DNA from: Thiorhodococcus fuscus
GTDB taxonomy: Bacteria; Pseudomonadota; Gammaproteobacteria; Chromatiales; Chromatiaceae
Assembly (NCBI RefSeq): GCF_042682685.1
Contig: NZ_JBHUHX010000009.1
Location: 55,805 to 119,804 of the forward strand
Length of the DNA stretch: 64,000 nucleotides
Direction of reading: 5' to 3'
A program made the translations under genes and the position numbers. This document shows, in pieces, positions 2,226-59,600 of this stretch; positions within the stretch are counted from its first letter, which is position 1, and every line of letters begins with the position of its first letter. Under the pieces are notes generated by a model that was not told the DNA's origin, made no database searches, and saw nothing but the letters and a program-made list of their open reading frames with translations.

Positions 2226-4571
2226 ATGACAGCGCCTAACAATCCACACACTGCCGCCGTCTCGGCACAGCCACCACGCCCACTGACCGTCGCACTGGCC
2301 GGCAATCCGAATTGCGGCAAATCCGCGCTCTTCAATGCCCTGACCGGCATCCGCCAGACCACCGGGAACTGGCCGGGCGTCACGGTCGAGCGCAAGGAAG
2401 GCGCCATGGAGCTGGATGGGCGCCGAATCAAGGTCATCGACCTGCCTGGCATCTATTCGCTCGATGCCAGCTCGCTCGACGAGGTGGTCACGCGGGATTA
2501 CCTCCTCAGCCGCGAGGCCGACCTCATCGTCAACGTCCTGGATGCGAACAACCTGGAGCGCAATCTCTACCTGTCCGTCCAACTGTTGGAGATGGGCGTT
2601 CCGGTCATCGTCGCCCTCAACATGATGGACGTCGCGCGTAAGCGCGGCGTGCGGATCGACATCGCTCAGCTCGCGCAGGCGATCGGCTGTCCCGTCGTCC
2701 CCGTGGTGGCGGTTGCCAAGGAGGGCCTGACCGAGCTCCAGGCACGTCTACTCGCCGTCGCCGAGGGGCGCGAACCGGCCGGACTGCCGCTGGGTCAGAG
2801 CGAATTCGTCGAGGAGGCGATCGCGGAGCTCGCACCGAGTCTGAGCGAGATCGCCGATCGGGCCAACAGCCGCTGGCTGGCGCTCAAGCTCCTCGAATCG
2901 GACCTTTCGGCCGAACAATCGGTCGCCCCCGAGATACTGGAACGCGCTGAGCAGTTGCGTCATCAGATCACCGTGCGCACTGGAGAGGACGCGGACCTCC
3001 ACATCGCCGATACCCGCTTCGGCCATGCACACGCTCTGGCGCAACGGGTCATGCGCGAGAGCCACCGGGTTGAGCGCACCCTATCGGACCGCATCGATCG
3101 GGTCGTTCTCAATCGCATCTTCGGCATCCCGCTGTTCCTGCTGATGATCTATCTCATGTTCATGTTCACCATGAACATCGGGGGCGCCTTCATCGACTTT
3201 TTCGATCTCGCCGGCCGGGCCCTGTTCGTCGACGGACTCGGAGCGCTGCTTGACGACCTGAACGCACCCGACTGGCTGTCCCTGGTGCTGGCCGAGGGCA
3301 TCGGCGGCGGTCTGCAGGTGGTCGGAACCTTCATCCCCATCATCGCCAGCCTCTACATCGTGCTCTCGATCCTGGAGGACTCGGGCTACATGGCGCGCGC
3401 GGCCTTCGTCATGGACCGCTTCATGCGCTCGATCGGGTTGCCGGGCAAGGCGTTCGTGCCCCTGATCGTGGGCTTCGGCTGCAACGTCCCGGCGGTAATG
3501 GCGACCCGCACGCTCGAAAGCGAACGCGAACGCAAGCTGACCATCCTCATGAATCCCTTCATGTCCTGCGGAGCCAGACTCCCGGTCTACGCACTGTTCG
3601 CGGCGGCCTTTTTCCCGCATTCGGGGCAGAATCTGGTCTTCGTGCTCTATCTGACCGGCATCGCCGTCGCCGTCCTGTCGGGACTGGCGATGAAGCACAC
3701 CCTGCTCAAGGGCGACAGCTCGGGCCTGCTGATGGAGCTGCCGCCCTATCACCTGCCGACCGTCAAGGGCGTGCTGCTGCGCACCTGGGACCGGGTCAGG
3801 CTCTTCCTGCGCGAAGCGGGCAAGGTCATCGTGGTGATGGTGCTCATCCTCAACGTGCTCGCCACCATCGGCAGCGACGGCACGATGGGCAACCATGAAA
3901 GCGACCAGTCCGTCCTGGCCGCCATCAGCCGCACCGCGACGCCGGTGTTCGCCCCCATGGGCATCCGCGAGGACAATTGGCCGGCCGTGCTTGGGATCTT
4001 CTCCGGCGTTCTCGCCAAGGAGGTCATCGTCGGAACATTGGATTCGCTCTACGGGCGCCTGGCCGAGGAAGAGCATCCGACCGAGACGCAGGAGCCATTC
4101 GATCTGTGGCGCGATCTGGGACGCGCGGCCTCCTCGATCCAAGAAAACCTCTCGGCGCTGGGCGCGCGCCTGCTCGACCCGCTCGGACTCGACGTCGGCG
4201 ATCTGAGCGATCAAGGACTGGCCGCAGAGGAACAGGGCGTCGGCAGCGAAACCTTCAACGCCATGACCGAACGCTTCGACGGACAGGCCGGCGCATTCGC
4301 CTATCTGCTGTTCGTGCTGCTCTACTTCCCCTGCGCGGCGACCATCGGGGCCATCGTCCGCGAGGCCGGCGTGCGCTGGGCGCTCTTCGTCGGGGCCTGG
4401 ACCACCGGGGTCGCCTTCCTCGCGGCCAGCATCTTCTACCAAACGGCGACCTTCGAGCGCGACCCGCTGGGCGCCGGACTCTGGATCGGAGGGGGACTGA
4501 CACTGCTGGTCGGGGTGCTCGTCGGGCTGCGGTTCTGGGCCATCGGCGCTCGCAAGGCCGACGCTGGCTGA
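2226..4571 (+). CDS. feoB: Ferrous iron transporter FeoB
   Basis: 781 aa. N-terminal G domain GNPNCGKSALFNALTG, DLPGIYSL, then a polytopic membrane domain with the gate motif region. Confidence 0.9.
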   Translation: MTAPNNPHTAAVSAQPPRPLTVALAGNPNCGKSALFNALTGIRQTTGNWPGVTVERKEGAMELDGRRIKVIDLPGIYSLDASSLDEVVTRDYLLSREADLIVNVLDANNLERNLYLSVQLLEMGVPVIVALNMMDVARKRGVRIDIAQLAQAIGCPVVPVVAVAKEGLTELQARLLAVAEGREPAGLPLGQSEFVEEAIAELAPSLSEIADRANSRWLALKLLESDLSAEQSVAPEILERAEQLRHQITVRTGEDADLHIADTRFGHAHALAQRVMRESHRVERTLSDRIDRVVLNRIFGIPLFLLMIYLMFMFTMNIGGAFIDFFDLAGRALFVDGLGALLDDLNAPDWLSLVLAEGIGGGLQVVGTFIPIIASLYIVLSILEDSGYMARAAFVMDRFMRSIGLPGKAFVPLIVGFGCNVPAVMATRTLESERERKLTILMNPFMSCGARLPVYALFAAAFFPHSGQNLVFVLYLTGIAVAVLSGLAMKHTLLKGDSSGLLMELPPYHLPTVKGVLLRTWDRVRLFLREAGKVIVVMVLILNVLATIGSDGTMGNHESDQSVLAAISRTATPVFAPMGIREDNWPAVLGIFSGVLAKEVIVGTLDSLYGRLAEEEHPTETQEPFDLWRDLGRAASSIQENLSALGARLLDPLGLDVGDLSDQGLAAEEQGVGSETFNAMTERFDGQAGAFAYLLFVLLYFPCAATIGAIVREAGVRWALFVGAWTTGVAFLAASIFYQTATFERDPLGAGLWIGGGLTLLVGVLVGLRFWAIGARKADAG

Positions 4572-4610
4572 AGGGCGATCGACGCCTGGAGAACGGAAAC
4601 CGGGGCGCCT

Positions 4611-5120
4611 CTAGAGGGCGCGCGGTCGAGTCAAGGACAAGAGCTGTGCACTCCCGGAATCGAGCTGCCCCCAATCGTCCGGCATTTCGAGCCGGGCGAC
4701 GGCGGCGGTGGGCAGGAGCTTGCCATCGTCTGGCGGCTCGTAATCGTCCGCGACGAGATGTCTCAGCAACGCTTCGAGTCCGGGGTTATGGCCGATCAGG
4801 AGCACGGTTGCGGCCTCGGGCGGAACCCGTGACAGCACCTCCAGCAGCTCGGGCAGTCCCGCCTCGTAGATGGCACTATCCCAAACGATGCGCTTCTTCT
4901 TGAAGTCCAGGCACTTGCATACCTTGGTCGCAGTCTGGCGGGCCCGCTCGGCCGGCGAGCTGACGACATGGTCGGGCACCAATCCCTCGCGATAGAGCCA
5001 GGCCCCCACCTTGGGTGCATCGTTCTTGCCGCGTTTGGCGAGCGGACGATCGAAATCGGTCGAGGCGCCAGAGTCCCAATCGGACTTGGCGTGACGGAGC
5101 AGCAGGAGTTCTCGAGACAT
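4611..5120 (-). CDS. sixA: Phosphohistidine phosphatase SixA-like (histidine phosphatase superfamily)
   Basis: LLLLRHAKS (RHG-type catalytic motif) and LLIGHNPGLE. Start taken at the internal MSRELLLL at 5120 rather than the ORF-track start at 5177. Confidence 0.65.
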   Translation of the reverse strand: MSRELLLLRHAKSDWDSGASTDFDRPLAKRGKNDAPKVGAWLYREGLVPDHVVSSPAERARQTATKVCKCLDFKKKRIVWDSAIYEAGLPELLEVLSRVPPEAATVLLIGHNPGLEALLRHLVADDYEPPDDGKLLPTAAVARLEMPDDWGQLDSGSAQLLSLTRPRAL

Positions 5121-5230
5121 GGAAAAGAAGGGATCGGCGTAGATCAATCTGGGTCGACAACCTGCCAATGACAACAATGGCGGTTTTTAACACATCCGTC
5201 ATTTTGGCGTAACCGCGCGACGCAATTCCC

Positions 5231-6106
5231 TTAGCGAATCTCGGCCAATAGGCGTGAAATCATCTGGCGCGACTGGCTGAGATAGCCGCCGCCAAAAAGA
5301 TTCAGGTGATTGAGGACGTGGTAGAGGTTGTAGAGCAGGCGGCGAACCCCATAGCCCGGGTCCAGTGGCCAGGCGGCACGGTAGGCCGCATAGAACTCCG
5401 AACCGAAGCCGCCGAACAGCTCGGTCATCGCCAGATCCGCCTCGCGATCTCCGTAATAAACGGCCGGATCGAAGATTACCGGCTGCCGGTCGGGGGTACT
5501 GCCGATGTTCCCGCCCCACAGGTCCCCGTGCAGCAGCGAGGGCACGGGATCGTGCCCGATCAGCAGGCCGAGATCCGCCATCAGGCGCTCGCCGTCGTGC
5601 TGCAAATCGCCGCCGTGTCCGTTGGCGGCGGCGAGTTTCAGCTGATGACCGAGACGCTGCTCGCGCCAGAAGGACACCCAGTCGCGCTCCCGGCGATTGG
5701 TCTGCGGGGTGGAGCCGATGGTGTTGTCCCGGTGCCAGCCGAAGGTCTCAGCGCTGGAGCGATGCATGGCCGCCAGCCGTTCGCCAGCGAGCGCGCCATC
5801 CAGCCTCCCGCCGAGATCCAACCGCTCCATGACCAGGAAGGACTGACCGTCGGCAACGCCGGTACAGATCGGACGGGGAACCCGAATGGCCTCGGCCGAG
5901 GCCAGCGCGGTCAACCCCTCGAATTCGGCCGCGAACATCTCGGCGCGGTCGGTCGAGTTCAGCTTGACGAAATAGCTGCGACGACCATCGCCGAGCACGG
6001 CCGCCCGATTGATGCAGCCGCCACCGACCGGTTGTTCGCGCTCGACCCGAAACGACTCGCCAGTCGCATCGCCGATCGCGTCGGCGATCCCACCCCATCG
6101 ACTCAT
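5231..6106 (-). CDS. Fructosamine/ketosamine-3-kinase family protein
   Basis: 291 aa. SLLHGDLWGGN catalytic loop and FDPAVYYGDRE..DLAM motifs typical of the fructosamine kinase family. Confidence 0.8.
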   Translation of the reverse strand: MSRWGGIADAIGDATGESFRVEREQPVGGGCINRAAVLGDGRRSYFVKLNSTDRAEMFAAEFEGLTALASAEAIRVPRPICTGVADGQSFLVMERLDLGGRLDGALAGERLAAMHRSSAETFGWHRDNTIGSTPQTNRRERDWVSFWREQRLGHQLKLAAANGHGGDLQHDGERLMADLGLLIGHDPVPSLLHGDLWGGNIGSTPDRQPVIFDPAVYYGDREADLAMTELFGGFGSEFYAAYRAAWPLDPGYGVRRLLYNLYHVLNHLNLFGGGYLSQSRQMISRLLAEIR

Positions 6107-21556: not shown

Positions 21557-21751
21557 ATGAACGACATGACCTCTGCCCTTGGAGACGCCCTCGCCACTTG
21601 GGCGAGCGGTCGGCACATCAGCCGTGAGATCCGCAACAGCCTGCTTGAGTCCGGCTACAGCGCCGACGACATCGCAATGATGGAACTCCATCACTTCAAG
21701 CCCGCACACCTCCACCTTTCGCGTACCTCCCAGACTGGAGAGAACCAATGA
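21557..21751 (+). CDS. Hypothetical small protein
   Basis: 64 aa. 4-bp overlap with the downstream Bro-N gene. Confidence 0.3.
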   Translation: MNDMTSALGDALATWASGRHISREIRNSLLESGYSADDIAMMELHHFKPAHLHLSRTSQTGENQ

Positions 21752-22707
21752 CCGCACTGTCCACCTTCACCTTCCCCGTCACTGCAGCCCAGGTCCGTAC
21801 CGTCACTGACGAGAATGGCGATCCATGGTTCGTCGCCAAGGATGTGGCCGATGCCCTTGGGTATGAGAACACGATGGAAGCGGTGCGCTACCACTGCAAA
21901 CGCGCTAAGGCGTTGAATACATTGAAGCAGAGCAAAATGCTCTCCTTGCATCCGCACACGAAGCTCATCCCCGAGGCCGACATCTACCGTCTGGTGATGC
22001 GCTCCAAGCTCCCGTCCGCCGTTGAGTTCGAGGAATGGGTTGTCGAGGAAGTCCTGCCCTCCATCCGCAAGACTGGCAGCTACTCCATGCAGCCTGCTCT
22101 CCCTGACTTCACCGATCCGGCAGCCGCCGCTGAAGCATGGGCGAAGGAGTACCGGGACAAGATGGTCATGATCGACTTCGCCAAGAAGCAGGCAGCCCAG
22201 CTCACCGAGCAGGCCCCGCTGGTGGACTTCGCCGAGGCTGTCGTCGCCGACAGTGAGGACTGCTACATCCGCGATGCAGCCAAGACGGTCGATGTCGCCC
22301 CCTTCCGGCTCTACGAGATCCTCCGTCAGTACAAGTGGATCCCTGAGTCCGATGTCTACCGGATGGTGATGCGTTCCACCCTCTCGGCTGCCTCTCGATC
22401 ACTGAGCTGGTGGGCTCTCGTCACGACAAGGTCAAGCAAAGCATCGAGCGCCTCGCAAACCGTGGTGTTATCACTCAACCTCCAATGGAGGATGCGTCCT
22501 ACAAAGACGGACCCGGCAGCACCATCGTCACCTAGCTCTTCATCTTCTCCGGTGAGCAAGGCCGGCTGGACTCCTTCTCGGTGGTCGCCCAGCGGTTGCC
22601 CACACCGAGCGTCTCACCTGCATGCTGGATATAGACGAAGTTCAAAGCCACCGGTTTGGTGGGTTTGGACCTCGCGGGTCGATGCCGCCGAAGCACAAAA
22701 CCTATAA
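21748..22707 (+). CDS. Bro-N domain phage antirepressor, apparently frameshifted into a Rha-like segment
   Basis: N-terminal Bro-N signature: GDPWFVAKDVADALGY..EADIYRLVMRSKLP.A.EFE.WV...VLPSIRKTGSY. After ~aa 230 the frame becomes low-complexity, while another frame encodes SELVGSRHDKVKQSIERLANRGVI (Rha-family motif). Confidence 0.55.
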   Translation: MTALSTFTFPVTAAQVRTVTDENGDPWFVAKDVADALGYENTMEAVRYHCKRAKALNTLKQSKMLSLHPHTKLIPEADIYRLVMRSKLPSAVEFEEWVVEEVLPSIRKTGSYSMQPALPDFTDPAAAAEAWAKEYRDKMVMIDFAKKQAAQLTEQAPLVDFAEAVVADSEDCYIRDAAKTVDVAPFRLYEILRQYKWIPESDVYRMVMRSTLSAASRSLSWWALVTTRSSKASSASQTVVLSLNLQWRMRPTKTDPAAPSSPSSSSSPVSKAGWTPSRWSPSGCPHRASHLHAGYRRSSKPPVWWVWTSRVDAAEAQNL

Positions 22708-23640: not shown

Positions 23641-23995
23641 GCGTGAAGTCCTGCCCACCATCCGCAAGACCGGCAGCTATTCGCTCCAGCCTCAACCCCA
23701 GATCCCACAGTCCTTGCCCGAGGCACTCCGTCTCGCCGCCACGCTGGCCGAAGAGAAAGAGCGCCTCGCCCAGGAGAACGCGCAGCTCACCCACATCACG
23801 TCCGTCCAGAACGACATGCTTGAAGCCACTGCCCCCAAGGCTGCCCTTCTCGATCAAGCGTTCGAGGATGACCGCTGGGTTAACGTGACCGACTTCGCCA
23901 GCCGGCTGGAAGGCGTCAACCGCAACAGCCTGACTTCAGTGATCCGGGTTATAGGAGGCGCGGTTGCAGTTAGCTATCAAGCCACTCGTTTGTAA
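23405..23995 (+). pseudogene. Bro-N C-terminal half fused to a KilA-C-like tail (antirepressor remnant)
   Basis: ESWLYEAILGSHKAEAKRFKRWVKREVLPTIRKTGSYSLQ is the distal half of a Bro-N domain without its N-terminal half. Preceded by repeat debris. Confidence 0.45.
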
Positions 23996-25037
23996 CTTCA
24001 CGGTACTTGCCGATGAAGTCCTCACGACCACAAAGCCGAGGTTCTGTCAGCAAATGGTAGGCTCTATTTATGGCCTGCCCGATCTCTTCCCGAGTCAACT
24101 CTGCACAGAACACCGAGAAGAAATCAGATAGATCGACAACAGCAAGATCGAAGCTCAGGTGCTCGATGAAATCTATTAGTTTGGACGCGGGATATAGATC
24201 GCTATCACCCCGGACATCGGAAGCGAATATTACGTATTTTGGCAGATTGCCCCGAACCGCTTTCTTTTGAAAATCACTAAGTCGGTTCTTCCAATCATCC
24301 CTTACCGTTACCTCGAATGCCGCTATTAGCAAGTCCTCTCTGTATTCCTCAATATCTCCAGTTGCCCCATCGAATTTGTCAGATGCATGCGGGTGATGTG
24401 TAATAACTCGATGCCCATATCGCTTTCGATGGACTTCAATGAAGGCGGCAACCAAGAACTGCTGGATGTGACCCTCTGAGGGTACTTTCATCAGCCTTTC
24501 GCAGAGACGAAGACTTCTCGCATACGACAAATAACCCCTTGGTAAAACTGGCAGTGCTTGCGGAATCACCTTGGATTGTTCAAGTCTCCATACAATGTGA
24601 TTGACAAGCGCTTCCCTTTCTGCTGGCTGCAGGCATTCAAGGTTGCTCACGAATGATGCAAAGCGTATATCAGCCGAGAGATCAAACTGGCGCACCGCTC
24701 CCTTCCAGCCTAAATTTTCACCAAATGCCGTTATGCTGTTGTGAAGTGTGACATGCCGTTGAGTCAGCTCCCCTGCGAGTCTCTTATCACCATACTTACC
24801 TCGCGCCCCTACTGGGACGGTCTTAAAATCCCACTCTTCATCAATCAACGAATATGCTGCCAGGAAAGCACAAGCAAGTCTCACGCTTCCGCGCTGCGAT
24901 TCTATATGGCTATCAAATATCGCTTTGACATTTCTAGGCGCAGGCTCTCCAAGAACCTCTCCTTCTGATAGGCGATCAAGCCTATCAAGAATAATATCTA
25001 CAGCCTTCTCTACACTTTCATTTCGTCTTCGTTTCAT
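23970..25037 (-). CDS. Putative Type II restriction endonuclease (partner of the adjacent C5-MTase)
   Basis: 355 aa, markedly low-GC ORF. 4-bp overlap with the methyltransferase gene. No motif assignable by eye. Confidence 0.5.
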   Translation of the reverse strand: MKRRRNESVEKAVDIILDRLDRLSEGEVLGEPAPRNVKAIFDSHIESQRGSVRLACAFLAAYSLIDEEWDFKTVPVGARGKYGDKRLAGELTQRHVTLHNSITAFGENLGWKGAVRQFDLSADIRFASFVSNLECLQPAEREALVNHIVWRLEQSKVIPQALPVLPRGYLSYARSLRLCERLMKVPSEGHIQQFLVAAFIEVHRKRYGHRVITHHPHASDKFDGATGDIEEYREDLLIAAFEVTVRDDWKNRLSDFQKKAVRGNLPKYVIFASDVRGDSDLYPASKLIDFIEHLSFDLAVVDLSDFFSVFCAELTREEIGQAINRAYHLLTEPRLCGREDFIGKYREVTNEWLDS

Positions 25038-26083
25038 AGCGCCAATTCCATTTGATTGAAATCCTCATTTGCAGGCACAAGACCCGAAGGAGATTGAACT
25101 CCATTGGCCTGAGAATACAAAGCCGCGCCTATGGCAAATGCCAGATCAGGTGGAACTGCGTCTCCCACTTGCTTGTACTGAGACGAGCGTTTGCCAGAGA
25201 AAGCCATCTCGCTAGGAAAGGTCTGGATTATGGCGCACTCTTCCACGCTAAGGCGACGAGCACCAGGCACTATACCTTGCCACGGCTCTCCACCAGCGCG
25301 GAGATGAGAGTGGTACTTCGGGGCAATATTTTCCGTATCTATCCAGTGAGTCTTGTATCCGCCCGATGATGCCAGGATTGTGTGGCAGGGTCCGTTGGGA
25401 TCGATAGGGCGTCCACCTCCATTATAGACATGCCCAGCGTATGGACTCGGGCGTAAGTCTGGATACTTAGCGAAACGCACAGGGCAGTTCGGTGCTTCAC
25501 CGATAGGATCCGGGCCAAGCCTACTAGCCGCACTTACGTGCGGTAGCGATGTGTTTTCGCCATGGGTTGGCGTAGGTAGAAGTAAGCGATGTGAGCGGGA
25601 GCCGAGTATAAATAGTCGCCTTCTCTTCTGCGGCACGCCATAATCCGCAGAGTTAATTACAGACCAGTTAATGTGATATCCACATGCAGCCAGCCTTGAA
25701 AGGACTGACTCAAAATACGGGCGAGCCTTCTTGAGTGTAAGACCAGGAACATTTTCCATGAGGAAATACGCTGGCCGAACTTCGTTGAGACATCGGATGA
25801 ACTCTGGAATCATATCCCTTTCGTCCGCATGCCCTTTGCGCAACCCACCGATTGAAAAAGGTTGGCACGGAGGTCCGCCAACGACAATGTCAACTCGGCC
25901 TCGAAATGGCGAGAAGTCAATCTTGCGAACATCTTCGTTGAAGTGGTTTGAGCTGCCATGGTGCAAGGCGTATGTATCCATAGCATCTCGGTTGATCTCG
26001 ACATTTGCCACAATATCGAAACCAGCCCTCTGGATGCCTAAAGAAAGACCGCCTGGCCCTGAGAATAGGTCGATGCCTTTCAC
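25034..26083 (-). CDS. DNA (cytosine-5)-methyltransferase
   Basis: 349 aa. Motif I DLFSGPGG, motif IV GGPPCQPFS, motif VI ENV, motif VIII QKRRRLF. Confidence 0.9.
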   Translation of the reverse strand: MKGIDLFSGPGGLSLGIQRAGFDIVANVEINRDAMDTYALHHGSSNHFNEDVRKIDFSPFRGRVDIVVGGPPCQPFSIGGLRKGHADERDMIPEFIRCLNEVRPAYFLMENVPGLTLKKARPYFESVLSRLAACGYHINWSVINSADYGVPQKRRRLFILGSRSHRLLLPTPTHGENTSLPHVSAASRLGPDPIGEAPNCPVRFAKYPDLRPSPYAGHVYNGGGRPIDPNGPCHTILASSGGYKTHWIDTENIAPKYHSHLRAGGEPWQGIVPGARRLSVEECAIIQTFPSEMAFSGKRSSQYKQVGDAVPPDLAFAIGAALYSQANGVQSPSGLVPANEDFNQMELAL

Positions 26084-33137: not shown

Positions 33138-33210
33138 AGACAGCGGCGGGATTCGAACCCGCGCCGGACTGGTTATCGGCCAGTTGCTCTACCCACTGAG
33201 CTACGTTGTC
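33138..33210 (-). tRNA. tRNA-like element, Ile(GAU)-like anticodon, noncanonical (C at position 33, A-C mismatch at 5:68). Possible pseudo-tRNA or tRNA-mimic ncRNA.
   Basis: Folds into a 73-nt cloverleaf: acceptor GACAACG/CGCUGUC, D-arm GCUC-AGUGGGUA-GAGC, anticodon arm ACUGG-CCGAUAA-CCAGU, T-arm GCGGG-UUCGAAU-CCCGC with GGTTCGAATCC. No CCA encoded. Confidence 0.5.
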
Positions 33211-46019: not shown

Positions 46020-47465
46020 ATGCATTGGCGCGCCATCATTCGACTGTTCGGCATCCTGCTGATGCTCTACAGCCTGAGTTTCCTGCCCTCGATCGTCGTC
46101 GCGCTCATCTACAACGACGGCGAATGGCTGGTGTTCGGGGTCTCCCTGGTCATCACGGCGAGTATCGGCGTCTTCCTCTGGCTGCCCAACATTCGGGAGC
46201 AGACCGAGCTCTCGGTGCGCGACGGCTTTCTCATCGTCACCCTGTTCTGGGCGTTGCTCGGCATGGTCGGCGCCCTGCCCTTCATCCTGGGCCTGCACCT
46301 GAACGTCACCGACGCGGTGTTCGAGTCCATCTCCGGGTTCACCACCACCGGGGCCACCGTCATCGAGGGACTGGATCGGCTGCCGCCCTCCGTTCTCTAC
46401 CATCGCCAGCAGATCCACTGGCTCGGCGGAATGGGCGTCATCGTGCTCGCGGTCGCCATCCTGCCGCTACTCGGCGTCGGAGGCATGCAGCTCTACCGCG
46501 CCGAGACCTCCGGGGTCGCCAAGCACGAGAAGCCCACCCCGCGCATCGCCGAGACCGCGCGCGTTCTCTGGGCCATCTATTTCGCCCTCACCGCCGCCTG
46601 CGCGCTCGCCTTCTGGCTCGCCGGAATGAATACCTTCGACGCCATCGGTCATGCCTTCGCGACCGTCTCGACCGGCGGCTTCTCCACCCACGACGCCAGC
46701 ATCGGCTATTTCGACAGCCCGCTCATCGAGGCCATCGCCACCTTCTTCATGCTCGCTGGCGGTATCAACTTCACGATCCATTTTCTCGCTTGGCGCAAAC
46801 GCGACCCCGGTGCCTACCTGATCGATCCCGAGGTCCGTGCCTTCGGACTCATCTTTCTCGGCGGATCCCTGTTCGTAGCGGCCAGCCTCTACTGGGCAAA
46901 CGCCTATCCCGAAGGCTTGACCTGTCTGCGCTACGCCTCCTTTCAGGTCGCCTCCATCCTCACCAGCACCGGCTTCGGCACCGCCACCTACGCACTCTGG
47001 CCGCTACACGTCCCACTGGTGCTCGTGATCCTTTCATTCACCGGCGGCTGTGGCGGGTCGACGGCTGGTGGAATCAAGGTGCTGCGGGTGATACTGCTGG
47101 TCAAACTGGGCTTCCGCCAGCTCTTCCAGCTCGCACACCCGCAGGCGCTCGCCGTGGTGAAGGTGGGCAACCGCTCGGTGACCGAAGACATCCTGTTCTC
47201 GGTCTGGGGCTTCTCCGTCCTCTATGTGGTGACCTGCGTACTCCTGACCGTCGCCATGATGGCAGCCGGACTCGATCTGGAATCCGCATTCGGCGCAGTG
47301 GTCGCCACCGTCAACCTGCTCGGCCCCGGACTCGGCAAGGTCGCCACCAACTTCGCCACGGTCGACCCGGTCGTCAAATGGCTAGGCGTCTTCGGCATGC
47401 TCGCCGGACGCCTTGAGATCTTCACACTCTTCATCCTCTTCCTCCCGGACTACTGGCGGAACTGA
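46020..47465 (+). CDS. trkH: TrkH/KtrB-family K+ uptake transporter membrane subunit
   Basis: 481 aa. Repeated M-P-M motifs with selectivity-filter-like glycines ([31 protein letters not shown]). Confidence 0.85.
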
Positions 47466-47496
47466 TCCAGCAGGGTCAACCGGCTGATCCGCACCA

Positions 47497-47780
47497 GTGG
47501 CTCTTCGTCTCGGCTTCAAACATGCCATCGAGCATCGCCTGACCAAACCCAGAACCCCGCAGACCAATGGCATGGTCGAACGCTTCAATGGGCGCATCGC
47601 CAAGGTACTGGCCAACACGCTTCGACTCGTCGCAGAGTTTGGAGCAAACCATCACCCGCTACGTCCAGGTATACAACCAGCATATTCCGCAAAAAGCACT
47701 CAGGCACATGGCCCCGATTCAAGCCGTCAAGGATTGGGCTGAGAAACGCCCCGAACTATTCAAAAAGCAGGTATATAATT
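47497..47780 (+). pseudogene. IS481-family transposase, 3'-terminal remnant (5'-truncated, internal frameshift)
   Basis: ..TKPRTPQTNGMVERFNGRIAKVLANT then, after a -1/+1 shift, ..RFDSSQSLEQTITRYVQVYNQHIPQKALRHMAPIQAVKDWAEKRPELFKK is the rve-domain C-terminus typical of IS481-family transposases. It abuts the trkH stop. Confidence 0.6.
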
Positions 47781-47797
47781 TTCGGGGATTTTACACC

Positions 47798-47849
47798 GGC
47801 TTCATACTGCGTCCTTCGCTCTCGCTCAGGCCGCAGTATGAAGCCGGCT
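47798..47849. repeat. Perfect 15-bp inverted repeat hairpin between the IS remnant and the TIR gene
   Basis: ccggcttcatactgcg-N20-cgcagtatgaagccgg. Confidence 0.5.
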
Positions 47850-47880
47850 GTGCAAAGCTTTGGATGCTTGGAGAGAAGTA

Positions 47881-48702
47881 ATGGTCGATAAAAACGAGAA
47901 GTCGCTTGAAGAGCAGATAGTCGAGCGTTACCGAGCAGTTGTGGCCCAGCACTACCCCGAGCAGTTATCTGCGTGGCCCGTGCTGTCCGGCTATGACTCA
48001 AAAATCGGGAGTTACCAGGGTTGGCTCGTTGTCATCCTCAATCACACTGGCAATCCTGTGATGAGATCGTTCAGCGGGATCGGCGATCTTCCGCAGAATC
48101 TTTTGGGAGTCGCGCAGCTTGATGTAGCAAGCAAAGAGAAAGCTCGCTCAAGGCTTAACCGTCATTTCAATCTTCGCCCAACAGACGCAATAGTATTCAT
48201 AGATCCCGCTGGAAGCATCAATGACGAGCTTGGTCACATGCTCAAGAAGCACGAATTCGCCATGGGCCTAACACCGATGAAGATATTCCTCAGCCATAAA
48301 GGTGCCGACAAACCGCTAATTAGGGAATACAAGAAGACTTTGGAAATCATTGGATTTGATCCGTGGCTGGACGAAGATGCAATGCACGCAGGATTGGAGT
48401 TAGAGAGAGAACTCTTGAAGGGCTTCGCAGACTCATGCGCAGCCGTCTTCTTTGTAACCACCAACTACAAGGATGAAAACTTTCTAGCCTCTGAAGTTGA
48501 CTATGCAATTCAAGAGAAGCGCAAAAAGGGAGATAAGTTTTCCATCATTACTCTGGTCTTTCACGAACCAAGCGAGAAGGCGAAGGTGCCAGACCTCCTG
48601 ACACGCTATGTCTGGAAAGAACCATCTGGGCAGCTTGAAGGGCTTCGGGAAATTTTAAAGGCACTTCCCGTACAAACTGGTCAAGTCTATTGGCGTCCGT
48701 GA
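47881..48702 (+). CDS. TIR-domain protein with ~135-aa N-terminal domain of unknown function
   Basis: 273 aa on a low-GC patch. The C-terminal ~135 aa (MKIFLSHKGADKPLIREYKKTLEIIGFDPWLDEDAMHAGLELERELLKGFADSCAAVFFVTTNYKDENFLASEVDYAI) fits the bacterial TIR fold pattern (hFlSH...D, W.D, conserved Glu). Good RBS (ggagagaag) before ATG 47881. Confidence 0.65.
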   Translation: MVDKNEKSLEEQIVERYRAVVAQHYPEQLSAWPVLSGYDSKIGSYQGWLVVILNHTGNPVMRSFSGIGDLPQNLLGVAQLDVASKEKARSRLNRHFNLRPTDAIVFIDPAGSINDELGHMLKKHEFAMGLTPMKIFLSHKGADKPLIREYKKTLEIIGFDPWLDEDAMHAGLELERELLKGFADSCAAVFFVTTNYKDENFLASEVDYAIQEKRKKGDKFSIITLVFHEPSEKAKVPDLLTRYVWKEPSGQLEGLREILKALPVQTGQVYWRP

Positions 48703-48800
48703 ACGTCGCATCCAAACAGGTTCTAGCCGATGTCCCTGCCTCCGCTTCGCTCCGGCAGGGCCGCGCCTGAACCTGAGCGTTGGACGGATCCTGATCGCAC

Positions 48801-49982
48801 TTACGCGAGCTCGCTGTCCTGTTCCCGAGCGTTTACCGACTGGACCGATGCATGTCCCGGCGTTCCGGCTTGGTAGAGGAAGGCCGCGACCAGCGCGGTG
48901 AAGGGGGCCACGGTGATGAGTCCGAAGCTGCCGACCAGGATGTTGACCACCTCGGCGGCGACGAAGGGGGCGTTGAGGATGTTCGCGGCCGGGAGCCCCT
49001 TGGCCATGAACAGCAGGAACATGGCGATGTGGCTGCTCGAATAGGCGAGCAGCAGCGTGGTGGTCATGGTCCCGATCACCGCCCTTCCGACCCTCAGCCC
49101 CGAGGTCAGGTGCTCGAACAGCCCGATGCCCGGATGATTGCGCTGGATCTCGTCCATGCTGGCGGCGATGTCCATCGCCAGATCCATGACTGCGCCCGAT
49201 GAGGCGATGAAGATGCTGGCGATGAAGATATCGGTCAGACGCAGGTCGTAGTAGCCCGCATAGAGCAGCGTCTCGGCGAATGGCCTCACCGCGCCGTGCA
49301 GATGGAAGGCGTTGACGGACCAGAGCGCCAGGGCGCAGGTCAGGGAGACCCCGAGCATGGAGCCGGCGAAGGTCGCGATGCCGCGCCGGCTGAGTCCTCC
49401 AACCGAGAAGGTGATGACCCCGGTCAGCAGCGCAACCAGCGCCAGCCCGGACGGGATTGGCGAATAGCCGAGCAGTACCAGTGGAAAGAAGACCTTCCAC
49501 AGCACCAGGGCGGCGAAGACGAACGACAGCGCCGCCTTGAGCCCGGTGACTCCGGCGACCGCGATCAGCAGTACCACGAAGACACCGATCAGCATCAGCT
49601 CCAAGCCCAGCCGGTAATAGCCGCGCGCCATTCCATTGGCCGGCTTGCCGTTCTTGACCCCGTACTCGACCAGGATGACCTGGCCCTCCTCGTAGAACTC
49701 GTCGAGTTCCATCTTGCCGGTCAGGATGTTGGTGACCGCCAATTCCTGACCTTTGTATGGACCGTCGAGCAGACGCACGATGAGGAATTGATCCTCGGTC
49801 TTGACGATGAGATTGACCCGCACCTGACTGTTGTCGACCTGGGTAACCAGGGCGCGCGCGTGCAGACCCGTCTCGGCGGAGGGCACGGGCGACAGATCGA
49901 TCAAGGCGAGCAGACCGCAGATGAGCGCGATGACCAGGGCGAACAGCCAGTCTCGGCTCAAAACAAATCGAAAGGGTTTCAT
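48801..49982 (-). CDS. YibE/F-family membrane protein
   Basis: 393 aa. N-terminal periplasmic segment plus a multi-TM YibE/F-like core. Confidence 0.65.
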   Translation of the reverse strand: MKPFRFVLSRDWLFALVIALICGLLALIDLSPVPSAETGLHARALVTQVDNSQVRVNLIVKTEDQFLIVRLLDGPYKGQELAVTNILTGKMELDEFYEEGQVILVEYGVKNGKPANGMARGYYRLGLELMLIGVFVVLLIAVAGVTGLKAALSFVFAALVLWKVFFPLVLLGYSPIPSGLALVALLTGVITFSVGGLSRRGIATFAGSMLGVSLTCALALWSVNAFHLHGAVRPFAETLLYAGYYDLRLTDIFIASIFIASSGAVMDLAMDIAASMDEIQRNHPGIGLFEHLTSGLRVGRAVIGTMTTTLLLAYSSSHIAMFLLFMAKGLPAANILNAPFVAAEVVNILVGSFGLITVAPFTALVAAFLYQAGTPGHASVQSVNAREQDSELA

Positions 49983-56661: not shown

Positions 56662-57243
56662 ATGTCGACCCTGGCCTACGACCTGACGCGGGAAGCCGAT
56701 CGCGTCTTCGCCCGATTGATGGTGCGTGCGGCCGGGGACGGCAATGATCGAGCCTTCGCGGCGATGATCGCAACGCGCGCCGCCGGTGGCGGTGCGCTCC
56801 CCGCCTGGCTGGGGCTGGATCTGGGCGATTTTCGCAATCTCATGGCCCATCATTTCCCGGGCGTCTCGCCCGACGTGCTCAGCGCCATCGACTCGGGCCA
56901 ACCTCTGACCGACGCGCGCCAGGACGAGCGCGATGAACTGATCGAACTCATGCTGACGCATCGCGCCAACCGCACCCTCTCCGAGGTCTGGATGGCCAGC
57001 GTCGTCGCCGCCGGCTGCATGGCCAGCGACCATCTGTGGCAGGATCTCGGGCTCTGGGAACGTCCCGAGCTGACCGCCCTGATGAACAGAAACTTCCCGA
57101 CCCTGGCCGAGCGCAACACCAAGGACATGAAGTGGAAGCGCTTCCTCTACAAGCAGTTGTGCGAGGCCGAGGGCATCTATGTCTGCCGCTCCCCGTCCTG
57201 CGAGGTCTGCGTCGACTACCATGTTTGTTTCGAATCCGACTGA
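56662..57243 (+). CDS. nifQ: NifQ (molybdenum donor for FeMo-co synthesis)
   Basis: C-terminal CRSPSCEVCVDYHVC (Cx4Cx2Cx5C) and overall NifQ-like sequence. Immediately follows the ferredoxin gene. Confidence 0.75.
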   Translation: MSTLAYDLTREADRVFARLMVRAAGDGNDRAFAAMIATRAAGGGALPAWLGLDLGDFRNLMAHHFPGVSPDVLSAIDSGQPLTDARQDERDELIELMLTHRANRTLSEVWMASVVAAGCMASDHLWQDLGLWERPELTALMNRNFPTLAERNTKDMKWKRFLYKQLCEAEGIYVCRSPSCEVCVDYHVCFESD

Positions 57244-58216
57244 CTCTTCGCCCATCCAAGGCCAAAGCGACCGGCTACAGCAACGCGCCATCGGCGCCTA
57301 TCTGGGCATGGCCGTCGGCGACGCCCTGGGCGCGACCGTCGAATTCCTCACCCCGCGCGAGATCCGGGATCAGTACGGCGAGCACCGCGACATCATCGGC
57401 GGCGGCTGGCTGCGTCTGCGCAAGGGACGGGTAACGGACGACACCGAGATGAACCTGGCGCTGGGCCGAAGCCTGCTCGCCGCAGGCGGCCTGGATGCCG
57501 TCGCCATCGCCGAGTCCTTCAGCGACTGGATGCGCACCAAACCGGTCGACATCGGACACACGGTCCGGCGCGGCATCAGTCTCTATCGGCGCACCGGACA
57601 GACCCAAGTCCCGGAGAACGAGTACGACGCCGGCAATGGCGCCTGCATGCGCGCCCTGCCGATCGCGCTCTACACCCTGGGCGCGACGCCCGACGAGGTC
57701 GACACGGCCAACCGCCTCCAGGCCCACATCACCCATCACAACGCCTTGTCCGATCTCGGTACGTTCGCCGTGATCCGCATGGTCCAGACCGCCCTGCTGG
57801 GCGGAACCGTCATCGATCTGGCGACGCTCGCCAAACAACTCGTCGACGCCGACGCCCATTTCCGCTACGACCGCAAACGCACCGAGAATCCCGGCGGCTA
57901 TATCGTCGAAACCCTTCAAGCCGTCATCCAGTCGCTGTTGCAGACCGACTCATTCGAATCGGCGCTGGTGGATGTGGTCAATCGAGGAGGCGACGCAGAC
58001 ACCACGGGGGCGATCCTGGGCATGATCGCGGGCGCGCTCTACGGTCCCGAGGCAATCCCCAAGCGCTGGATGAACACGCTGGACAAGGAGACGGCCAAGG
58101 CCTGCCGAGCGCAGGCTCTGGCCCTGGTGCGGGCATCCCCGCACCAGGGCGGGAATCTGAGGCTGAGCCTCAAGCCTGGCGAGCGGACGAGCACTCAGCA
58201 AGCCGCCCCTTCCTGA
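57221..58216 (+). CDS. draG: ADP-ribosyl-[dinitrogen reductase] glycohydrolase DraG
   Basis: AIGAYLGMAVGDALGATVEFLTPREIRDQYG..GGGWLRLRKGRVTDDTEMNLALGRSL..GGDADTTGAILG closely matches the DraG/ADP-ribosylglycohydrolase family. Overlaps the nifQ 3' end in another frame. Confidence 0.8.
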   Translation: MFVSNPTDSSPIQGQSDRLQQRAIGAYLGMAVGDALGATVEFLTPREIRDQYGEHRDIIGGGWLRLRKGRVTDDTEMNLALGRSLLAAGGLDAVAIAESFSDWMRTKPVDIGHTVRRGISLYRRTGQTQVPENEYDAGNGACMRALPIALYTLGATPDEVDTANRLQAHITHHNALSDLGTFAVIRMVQTALLGGTVIDLATLAKQLVDADAHFRYDRKRTENPGGYIVETLQAVIQSLLQTDSFESALVDVVNRGGDADTTGAILGMIAGALYGPEAIPKRWMNTLDKETAKACRAQALALVRASPHQGGNLRLSLKPGERTSTQQAAPS

Positions 58217-58712: not shown

Positions 58713-59600
58713 TCAGCAGCCGCTCTCATGCGCGACAGGAATCAGCTCGCCCATCGGGTCCAGCGTTCCGGCCGCCGCCAGGAAATCCGGGATATCGGCC
58801 TCGATGATCTCCACATCCTTGGTCGCACAGAAACGGCGTTCCTTGTCGGTAGGATTGGGAATCAAGGCCCAGCCCGCCGGTGAGCCGGCCGCATAGATCA
58901 TATCCGACATCACCATCCGCTCGGTGTCGCGGTTGAGGCTCAGCCCGAGGAAGAGATAGCGCTTACCCGGCCGATAGGCCTTGATGAAGGATGGAATGGC
59001 AAAGCCGCCCATCAGTTCGGTGATGTAATCCACATAGTCGGCGTCGGACGCGATGTAAGTGGAGTCCGGGCGCGGACTGCCCATCGGCTTGAACAGGATC
59101 GGCAGACTCGGGTCAACCGCTTCCTGCGCCACCTCGCGGTAAACCGTCCCGTCGTAGGCATGGATTCGGAACCGATAGTCCGTGCCGCCGGTTCGGGCGA
59201 TCCCCCTAACCAGGGTGTGCGGCACGTCGGAATAGGAATCCTGCAGCTGCAGGTCGCGGTTGATGTCGATCAGATAGCGAGGGCGAATCGACCGCAACCA
59301 ATCGTGCAGGGGCGCACGCGTCCAGGAACGCGTCGCATAGGTCGCTTCGAGAAAACGGTGGACGGCACCACGCCCACGCTTGAGTTCGACATCCATGGCC
59401 GCGCGCGAGAACTCCCACATGAGACGGGGGGACATGGGTCGACCGTTGTTCATGGCCAGAATCAGACTGTCGCTATCGGCCGGAATGGGCTCGCCCGTGG
59501 ACGTATCCACGGAGCCGGTCAGAGCGCCGGCCCCCAGATAGGGAACCAGTTCGCCGCGAGCCACCTCGTTCGCGAGAGATTCAAGTCGTGCAGACACCAT
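58713..59600 (-). CDS. SIR2-like (SIR2_2 family) domain protein, solitary
   Basis: 295 aa. LVPYLGAGALTGS (GAGxS NAD-binding loop), YLIDINRDLQLQ (TTNYD-like), FRIHAYDG (His), YLFLGLSLNRDTE (lFlGySl.D). Confidence 0.5.
   Translation of the reverse strand: MVSARLESLANEVARGELVPYLGAGALTGSVDTSTGEPIPADSDSLILAMNNGRPMSPRLMWEFSRAAMDVELKRGRGAVHRFLEATYATRSWTRAPLHDWLRSIRPRYLIDINRDLQLQDSYSDVPHTLVRGIARTGGTDYRFRIHAYDGTVYREVAQEAVDPSLPILFKPMGSPRPDSTYIASDADYVDYITELMGGFAIPSFIKAYRPGKRYLFLGLSLNRDTERMVMSDMIYAAGSPAGWALIPNPTDKERRFCATKDVEIIEADIPDFLAAAGTLDPMGELIPVAHESGC

Follow-up and report, generated by a model that had tools for sequence, protein, structure and literature searches.

Organization of the locus

In the window analyzed here, a 64,000-nt stretch of Thiorhodococcus fuscus DNA (contig NZ_JBHUHX010000009.1, positions 55,805 to 119,804), a gene for a protein with a C-terminal TIR domain was found between trkH and a yibE/F-like membrane protein gene, in the region that separates nifA from nifB. 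Its boundaries and its homologous loci indicate that this TIR gene very probably originated as an integron gene cassette, and the encoded protein is a candidate for a single-gene defense function. Both the TIR protein and TrkH were exact matches to T. fuscus proteins (WP_386024107.1 and WP_386024104.1, respectively).

A preliminary description of this DNA had already pointed to a 273-residue protein with a C-terminal TIR domain and to a composition unlike that of the surrounding genes, and both points were borne out. The GC content falls to 0.47-0.55 over positions 47400-48800, compared to about 0.64 in the flanks, and the GC content at third codon positions is 0.55 in the TIR gene versus 0.86 in trkH and 0.85 in yibE. 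The features of the interval are listed in Table 1, in which L081 denotes the locus of a 93%-identical homologue of the TIR protein.

Table 1 Features identified between trkH and the yibE/F-like gene. Positions are those of the window; aa, amino acids; nt, nucleotides; ORF, open reading frame; IS, insertion sequence.
Feature	Position	Strand	Characteristics
trkH, backbone gene	46020..47465	+	Pfam TrkH, E=4e-86
IS481-family 3′ remnant	47499..47795	+	Last ~97 transposase codons in two frames, one frameshift near 47618
Most likely partial attC of a lost upstream cassette	47796..47865	+	Hairpin, spacer and degenerate R′ box TTTGGAT (47859-47865); R″ side replaced by the IS end
Probable gene cassette, 920 bp	47860..48779	+	Opens with TTGGAT, closes with the G of the R′ box; 87% nt identity to L081-L083
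Ribosome-binding site GGAGAG	47870..47875	+	5 nt 5′ of the ATG; read from the sequence; kept in L081
TIR gene, ORF	47881..48702	+	ATG start, 273 aa, intact
N-terminal α/β domain, aa 1-131	47881..48273	+	Candidate sensor/regulatory module; AlphaFold2 (AF2) model
TIR domain, aa 133-273, with stop codon	48277..48702	+	TIR_2 match; putative catalytic Glu205
attC of the TIR cassette, 76 nt	48710..48785	+	R″ ATCCAAAC (48710-48717), R′ GTTGGAC (48779-48785); 82% identical to the L081 site
yibE/F-like membrane protein gene	48801..49982	-	Convergent with the cassette, right backbone flank; Pfam YibE_F, E=7e-71

Evidence for an integron cassette

The extent of the cassette was defined by comparison with L081, in which the flanking genes are hemA-prfA-prmC and not trkH/yibE. 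DNA similarity between the two loci was confined to positions 47860-48783 of the window (87% nucleotide identity), with unrelated flanks on both sides, and the shared block opens at TTGGATGC and closes at ...GAGCGTTGG. At the 5′ boundary, TTGGAT is present in both loci; it is preceded by G in L081, which gives GTTGGAT, a perfect GTTRRRY core, and by T in the window. The TTG at 47860, upstream of the ATG, belongs to this boundary and is not the start of the TIR gene.

Recombination sites of the attC type are imperfect palindromes of about 57-141 nt with an R″ box (RYYYAAC) and an R′ box (GTTRRRY) at their ends. In L081, the stop codon is followed by ATCCAAC, which conforms to RYYYAAC, then by inner complementary boxes and by GTTGGCA, and the bottom strand folds with pairing between CCAAC and GTTGG. 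The corresponding site in the window contains the inner pairs AGGTTC/GAACCT and CCCTGCC/GGCAGGG, and its loop motif CGCTTCGC is common to the attC sites of other members of the family. A pattern scan for attC sites was too unspecific in the GC-rich window and was not used as a test there.

When the 12 closest homologous loci were examined, RYYYAAC was found 2-8 nt past the stop codon in five of them (L081, L001, L002, L004, and L008), where the expectation by chance is about 1% per locus; the same was observed in L088/L090, outside this set. The array in L002 consists of an attC site (782-847), the ORF (865-1686) and a second attC site (1691-1777), with one more attC upstream, and L090 contains precisely one cassette more than L089, inserted at G|TT. 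Integrase genes accompany the TIR gene in two genomes, both with scores above the TIGR02249 cut-off of 265 bits: in Desulfuromonas sp. SDB (L008), where intI occupies 61-1305 on the minus strand and the TIR gene is the first cassette (395.6 bits), and in Sorangium sp. So ce1099 (L019), where intI (4712-5662, minus strand) lies about 4.3 kb from the downstream TIR gene (396.7 bits).

In Halotalea alkalilenta DSM 17697, the homologue is followed by a 60-nt element (L003, 10832-10891), of which 56 nt are 100% identical to the aadA6/aadA10 attC. This element matched at least 5000 plasmid records, and the match in plasmid pB12 is located in a class 1 integron, at the end of aadA6. Such identity implies that this environmental, chromosomal TIR cassette either took part in a recent exchange with the cassette pool of mobile integrons, represented by the clinical class 1 cassettes aadA6 and aadA10, or shares attC sites with it. 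Group II introns include a class (IIC-attC) that targets attC sites, and an intron of group II (Rfam RF02001, 123.9 bits; RF01998, 54.3 bits) was located inside an attC directly after a 68%-identical TIR homologue in a Pseudomonas sp. metagenome-assembled genome (L001, 3030-3420; JAUCCC010000026.1). Distant homologues (Pontibacter and two plasmid copies) have a GC-rich stem and a T-run past the stop codon, where closer homologues have attC. These loci show the TIR gene moving between genomes as a unit of ORF plus attC.

The IS481 remnant, the hairpin and the array downstream of trkH

Synteny with T. drewsii (rnf, nifA, a UCP032817-like gene and trkH) stops at 47498, 33 nt past the trkH stop codon; nucleotide identity to loci L092-L094 is 93% up to this position, and there is none beyond it. 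The sequence that follows derives from the 3′ end of an IS481-family element. Pfam rve_3 and rve_2 matched in two of its frames, and the frameshift-repaired translation showed 61% amino acid identity to annotated IS481 transposases, aligned to their last residues (tblastn). Three IS copies in T. drewsii AZ1 were 89-90% identical to the window from 47510/47526 to 47794-47795, and in all three the similarity was lost at 47794-47796; therefore, the right end of the IS is placed at about 47795, and the hairpin that begins at the next position lies outside the element and was ruled out as a part of it. The inverted repeats of L091, an intact but distant IS481 element, were uninformative for the remnant. 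In a fuller T. drewsii copy (L095), an upstream ORF matched transpos_IS481 (E=1.5e-33, 116.6 bits, below the curated cut-off of 224), and a recombinase fragment at the same locus was not supported as a T. drewsii IntI, its matches being XerC/D-like and well below the cut-off. Nothing links the IS481 remnant to the function of the TIR gene.

The hairpin, with the arms CCGGCTTCATACTGCG / CGCAGTATGAAGCCGG, can be drawn with 16 perfect base pairs (47796-47811 / 47832-47847) or with 20 base pairs and one mismatch (47796-47815 / 47828-47847), and the 106 nt around it (47780-47885) fold at -48.8 kcal/mol (z=-4.6). It was rejected as an intrinsic terminator or a dispersed repeat: it has no T-run, its motif occurs a single time in the window, and a metagenome scan returned no exact match. 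A counterpart was found in L092, a T. drewsii-like metagenome contig in which both attC sites downstream of trkH hold CCATACTGCGC...CAGTATGG. The window hairpin and these two sites align in register, including the position of R′, with CATACTGCG / CAGTATG and the core CATACTGCG/CGCAGTATG in common; among the 97 loci compared, the motif pair was found elsewhere solely in L092. The hairpin is most likely the L″-loop-L′ stem of an attC that belonged to a former cassette upstream. An IS481 element would have inserted in the 5′ side of this attC and later lost its own 5′ end, and the R′ box of the lost cassette, TTTGGAT with T where G is expected, would adjoin the TIR cassette.

The array of L092 (2807-5600) follows trkH and carries attC repeats of the type seen in the genus. 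It comprises, in order, a core site at about 3255, a 118-aa ORF, a 102-nt attC (3758-3859), a 224-aa ORF, an attC at about 4583-4686, and a DUF6946 ORF of 234 aa; the interval from trkH to the first cassette contains no integrase. Its content differs from that of the window, and therefore the site downstream of trkH holds different cassettes in different strains. A variable cassette array at this site explains the origin of a low-GC foreign gene between nifA and nifB, and hence this gene has no functional link to nitrogen fixation. In the 64-kb window, no integron integrase was detected by tblastn with 182 aa of IntI1, and no recombinase was present among the ten ORFs scanned, so the locus is an integrase-less remnant and not a complete integron. 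Positions 47796-48785 are best read as what is left of an integrase-less array (CALIN), with one truncated attC followed by one complete cassette.

With these results, the preliminary description of this part of the window can be amended. It had reported the last ~90 codons of a frameshifted IS481 transposase, fused to the trkH stop, and a perfect 15-bp hairpin. The frameshifted 3′ end was recovered, with ~97 codons and separated from trkH by the short gap described above; the hairpin is present and one base pair longer, and it is most likely the stem of a neighboring attC and not a free-standing feature. The proximity of the TIR gene to both was correctly given; its position inside the nif region is incidental, a variable cassette array being located downstream of trkH in this genus, and its nature as an integron cassette had been missed.

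Two independently located copies of the same IS481-family element are truncated at their 5′ ends, one in the window (~47499-47513) and one in T. drewsii (L097, ~905-925). Their first positions fall no more than a few nucleotides apart on the IS, immediately ahead of TCGAGCATCGCCT, and their flanks are unrelated. In L097, an attC-like 3′ end, GTTAAGCGTTGAAC, comes after the IS end, and upstream there is a YefM/YoeB pair. These are hints that an IS481-family element may be repeatedly associated with cassette arrays in Thiorhodococcus.

Domains of the TIR protein

Pfam TIR_2 matched residues 135-243 of the protein (E=2.9e-13, 50.8 bits, cut-off 28), and the AF2 model of the TIR domain displayed the alternating β/α pattern. 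The sequence contains the motifs FLSH (136-139) and WLDEDAM (162-168), as well as E205 within ASEVDYA. In an alignment of 27 homologous sequences, the invariant columns included H139, W162, D164, E165, D166, and E205; the conserved glutamate that the preliminary description had proposed is present throughout. A profile search of the PDB returned 7uxr, AbTir (7uwg, 7uxu, and 8g83), PdTIR, Cat1, and Brucella TcpB, with best E values of about 1e-6. The entry 7uxr, deposited as "TIR domain protein," is presumably BtTir. In these alignments, E205 coincided with the glutamate of the AbTir ELD motif, which we take to be the catalytic residue of that enzyme. The TIR domain is probably an NADase.

The defense-system models of PADLOC were also run against the protein, and all matches fell on the TIR part: SAVED_TIR (E=3.8e-9), PDC-S66 (E=1.1e-6), Aga_TIR (E=0.003), and ThsB (E of about 0.01). 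Comparison of the TIR gene with its 93%-identical homologue (L081) yielded dS=0.63 and dN=0.036, that is, dN/dS=0.057; the gene is under strong purifying selection and is therefore maintained by selection.

The N-terminal domain, described beforehand as about 135 uncharacterized residues, matched none of the families and folds searched. There was no Pfam match to it in the 22 members scanned, and Foldseek retrieved nothing convincing from the PDB (best E 0.17) or from the viral folds of BFVD (best E 0.04). Modeled separately with AF2 (pLDDT 87, pTM 0.80), it consists of helices at residues 9-31, then four strands, then helices at 85-95 and 114-127. When 1.84 billion representative proteins were searched exhaustively with a profile, the domain was found in just 95 clusters, most of them proteins of about 270 aa with the same N-terminal plus TIR architecture. 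In several proteins of 600-770 aa, this domain stands at the N-terminus and is combined with a CAP12/Pycsar-type TIR (PF10137, E down to 1.5e-13). The TIR module of the window protein (about 140 aa, 47-66% identity), for its part, is joined to four other, unrelated N-terminal groups, five with this one. Such two-way domain shuffling is typically seen in sensor-effector immune proteins.

Distribution and gene neighborhoods of the family

A homologue search with the TIR protein returned 1421 proteins at E<=1e-3. The best 120 of these were nearly all full-length (about 270 aa) and shared 51-93% identity; they came from Gallionella, Halotalea, Pontibacter, Desulfuromonas, Rhodoblastus, Uhrbacteria, and many metagenomes. 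The hosts span many phyla and comprise gut bacteria as well as free-living environmental ones, and the family members are annotated merely as "TIR domain-containing protein." In the literature, a study of TIR proteins in the gut microbiome contained nothing specific to this family (PMC9092222). No homologue was detected at the DNA level in 5,426 complete E. coli genomes, and therefore the family probably lies outside the E. coli TIR systems tested in PMC11350192.

For the partner search, the ORFs within 6 kb on either side of 36 full-length homologues in named genomes were compared all-against-all by BLASTP and clustered. No conserved partner gene emerged in these 36 loci; the recurring sequences were the TIR gene itself and its antisense ORFs. 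The preliminary description had noted the lack of an adjacent ThsA, cyclase, or Argonaute gene, and the wider sample agrees with it, with no housekeeping partner recurring either. Neighborhoods annotated with Pfam were mixed and included hemA-prfA-prmC, HMG-CoA genes with IS elements and SymE, TetR and AraC regulators, and a two-component system. A Citrobacter plasmid of 3.5 kb has the TIR homologue as its sole annotated non-backbone gene; also present are Rop, a protein of the excisionase family, and one small hypothetical gene. Two of the stretches collected, L001 and L035, overlap on one contig in opposite orientation and each hold a copy of the TIR gene; they may represent a large inverted duplication or an assembly artefact.

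Other features of the window

A complete type II restriction-modification pair occupies 23970-26083 on the minus strand; one gene encodes a REase_II of 354 aa (PADLOC, E=6.4e-99) and the other a C-5 cytosine methyltransferase (E=2.9e-93). Near it, a BRO-N/ANT antirepressor-like ORF was found at 21748-22707, and these findings point to a further foreign island in the window. A tRNA gene lies at 33138-33210 on the minus strand (Rfam RF00005, 64.7 bits).

Two further ORFs relate to ADP-ribose or, potentially, NAD chemistry. The first encodes an ADP-ribosylglycohydrolase (57179-58216, plus strand; Pfam, E=2.5e-64); it is unrelated to the TIR cassette and is presumably the draG of the nif regulatory system. 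The second is a 294-aa SIR2_2 ORF (58713-59600, minus strand; Pfam, E=6.7e-8), which has no PADLOC match and which a 1412-aa ORF overlaps on the opposite strand. Its SIR2_2 domain, 10 kb away from the TIR cassette, is the second one in the window that potentially consumes NAD.

Proposed function and alternative explanations

We propose that the cassette carries a single-gene abortive-infection candidate composed of a sensor and a TIR NADase, a function for which we see about an even chance; together with the array described above, it makes up the overall explanation toward which we lean slightly. The N-terminal α/β domain would hold the TIR domain in check and release it on binding a trigger, which would be a small ligand or a component of a phage. 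Binding would lead to self-association of TIR domains and to the formation of a composite NAD+ glycohydrolase site, in the manner of AbTir filaments and SpbK; NAD+ would then be depleted and the infected cell lost. Depletion of NAD+ is considered likelier than signaling because there is no partner effector. SpbK, which clusters on the phage portal, offers a precedent for this mechanism (PMC12847820), and about one-third of the mobile-integron cassettes of unknown function conferred phage resistance when they were tested (10.1101/2024.07.02.601719). More tentatively, the family as a whole could constitute an undescribed single-gene abortive-infection system across phyla, a TIR version of the bacteriophage resistance integron cassettes ("TIR BRiC"), in which the N-terminal domain would be a new trigger sensor driving both TIR_2 and CAP12/Pycsar-type effectors.

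Several observations weigh against this proposal. In the neighborhoods inspected, the TIR homologues are surrounded mostly by housekeeping genes and not by defense islands, and no homologue was found in the phage records searched. The PADLOC and NCBIfam models match just the TIR part, weakly, and the NCBIfam matches are far below cut-off. For the family, a role in defense is plausible at this stage. The N-terminal domain is well conserved, with the invariant polar residues H55, T56, R89, and D102, and this conservation would fit a small-ligand pocket better than a fast-evolving interface with a phage protein. As for the copy in the window, its R″ box ATCCAAAC is degenerate and falls 2 nt short of the canonical ATCCAACAAC stretch in L081, T and not G precedes TTGGAT, no intI is present within 64 kb, and a search for a sigma-70-like promoter of the TIR gene found none. 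The window cassette may be immobile and silent.

The polar residues of the N-terminal domain also bear on the explanation ranked second, according to which the protein is an orphan signal-responsive effector. Its N-terminal domain would bind a nucleotide messenger from a cyclase or TIR protein encoded elsewhere, and the TIR domain would deplete NAD+, as in Pycsar, CBASS, and type III CRISPR (compare TIR-cNMP, with a cyclic nucleotide-binding domain, TIR-SAVED, TIR-STING, and Cat1). Besides these residues, which suggest a ligand pocket, the pairing of the same domain with a CAP12/Pycsar-type TIR and the TIR part of SAVED_TIR as the best PADLOC match point in this direction. However, neither a cyclase nor any other partner was conserved around the 36 homologues, the cassettes travel as single genes, and the domain has no similarity to SAVED, STING, CARF, or cNMP-binding folds, and we regard an orphan effector as unlikely.

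Whatever the family does elsewhere, the T. fuscus copy could itself be an inert hitch-hiker, a silent and immobilized relic. This also seems unlikely to us, since the ORF is intact, with a ribosome-binding site and all invariant residues, its dN/dS relative to the closest relative is low, and it could be transcribed by read-through from trkH or the IS end. A relic would nevertheless agree with the degenerate R″ box, the lack of intI and of a promoter-like site in the window, the very stable hairpin directly upstream, and the truncated neighboring IS.

A ThsB-like signal producer, whose cyclic ADP-ribose isomer would activate an effector encoded elsewhere in the genome, is quite improbable. The nearest solved relatives in the PDB profile search, the 7uxr protein and AbTir, are presumably TIR NADases that produce such isomers, the protein gives weak matches to ThsB models, and the SIR2_2 ORF described above lies 10 kb away; however, this ORF has no PADLOC match to ThsA, nif genes stand between it and the cassette, none of the 36 loci has a ThsA-like neighbor, and the TIR gene travels alone, both as a cassette and on the 3.5-kb plasmid. 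A secreted or host-directed virulence factor of the TcpB/TcpC/AbTir type is hardly credible, for although a ~130-aa N-terminal domain followed by TIR and the nearest solved structures recall AbTir, the family resides in free-living environmental and gut bacteria of many phyla, no signal sequence is evident in the protein, and its N-terminal domain is modeled as an α/β fold where that of AbTir is, we assume, a coiled coil.

If the abortive-infection proposal is correct, it adds a TIR NADase to the defense repertoire of integrons and supplies a new sensor module. The family is a compact and widespread candidate, with an N-terminal domain that is confidently modeled, unlike solved structures, and swapped between two TIR effector families.

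Comparison with known systems

The systems with TIR proteins and partner genes share with the window protein the TIR fold and, presumably, its chemistry (Thoeris ThsB, the TIR effectors of CBASS/Pycsar, and the TIR-APAZ of SPARTA). Unlike them, the TIR gene stands without a ThsA, cyclase, or Argonaute partner. In the case of Thoeris, no ThsA (SIR2 or transmembrane plus SLOG) was found beside the TIR gene, whose flanks are trkH and yibE/F; in the case of CBASS, Pycsar, and type III CRISPR, no cyclase was found nearby, and the N-terminal domain matched neither SAVED, STING, cNMP-binding, nor CARF domains in Pfam and fold searches. Since the models match the TIR part and not the rest, the protein could not be filed under Thoeris, CBASS/Pycsar, SPARTA, or SpbK.

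AbTir and BtTir (7uwg, 7uxu, 8g83, and 7uxr) contain the closest solved TIR domains (E of about 1e-6) and resemble the window protein in size and domain order. The alignments cover about 80 residues, the N-terminal domains are unrelated, and the biology of these proteins is that of pathogens and commensals, not of a cassette. SpbK, a single-protein TIR NADase abortive-infection system of the B. subtilis element ICEBs1, has in common with the TIR cassette the lack of a partner gene and the location on a mobile element. Its N-terminus is a four-helix bundle that binds the phage portal (PMC12847820), whereas the model of the window protein shows an unrelated α/β domain with four strands; the PADLOC spbK model did not match the window protein, and SpbK was absent from its matches among solved structures.

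The BRiCs (Kieffer et al., 2025; Darracq et al., 2025; Getz et al., 2025) are, like the TIR family, compact genes on cassettes of ORF plus attC. As with BRiCs, members of the family occur in complete integrons and in integrase-less arrays, and one has the attC of a class 1 resistance cassette. The window copy differs in having no integrase within 64 kb, and the TIR family is so far a candidate for phage resistance. Two-gene cassettes whose first ORF is a homologue of ThsB (TIR) were described in the preprint by Kieffer et al. (10.1101/2024.07.02.601719), and in the literature searched, no single-gene TIR cassette of the present architecture was linked to integrons. Taken as a whole, the TIR protein is most like SpbK in its architecture and most like a BRiC in its vehicle.

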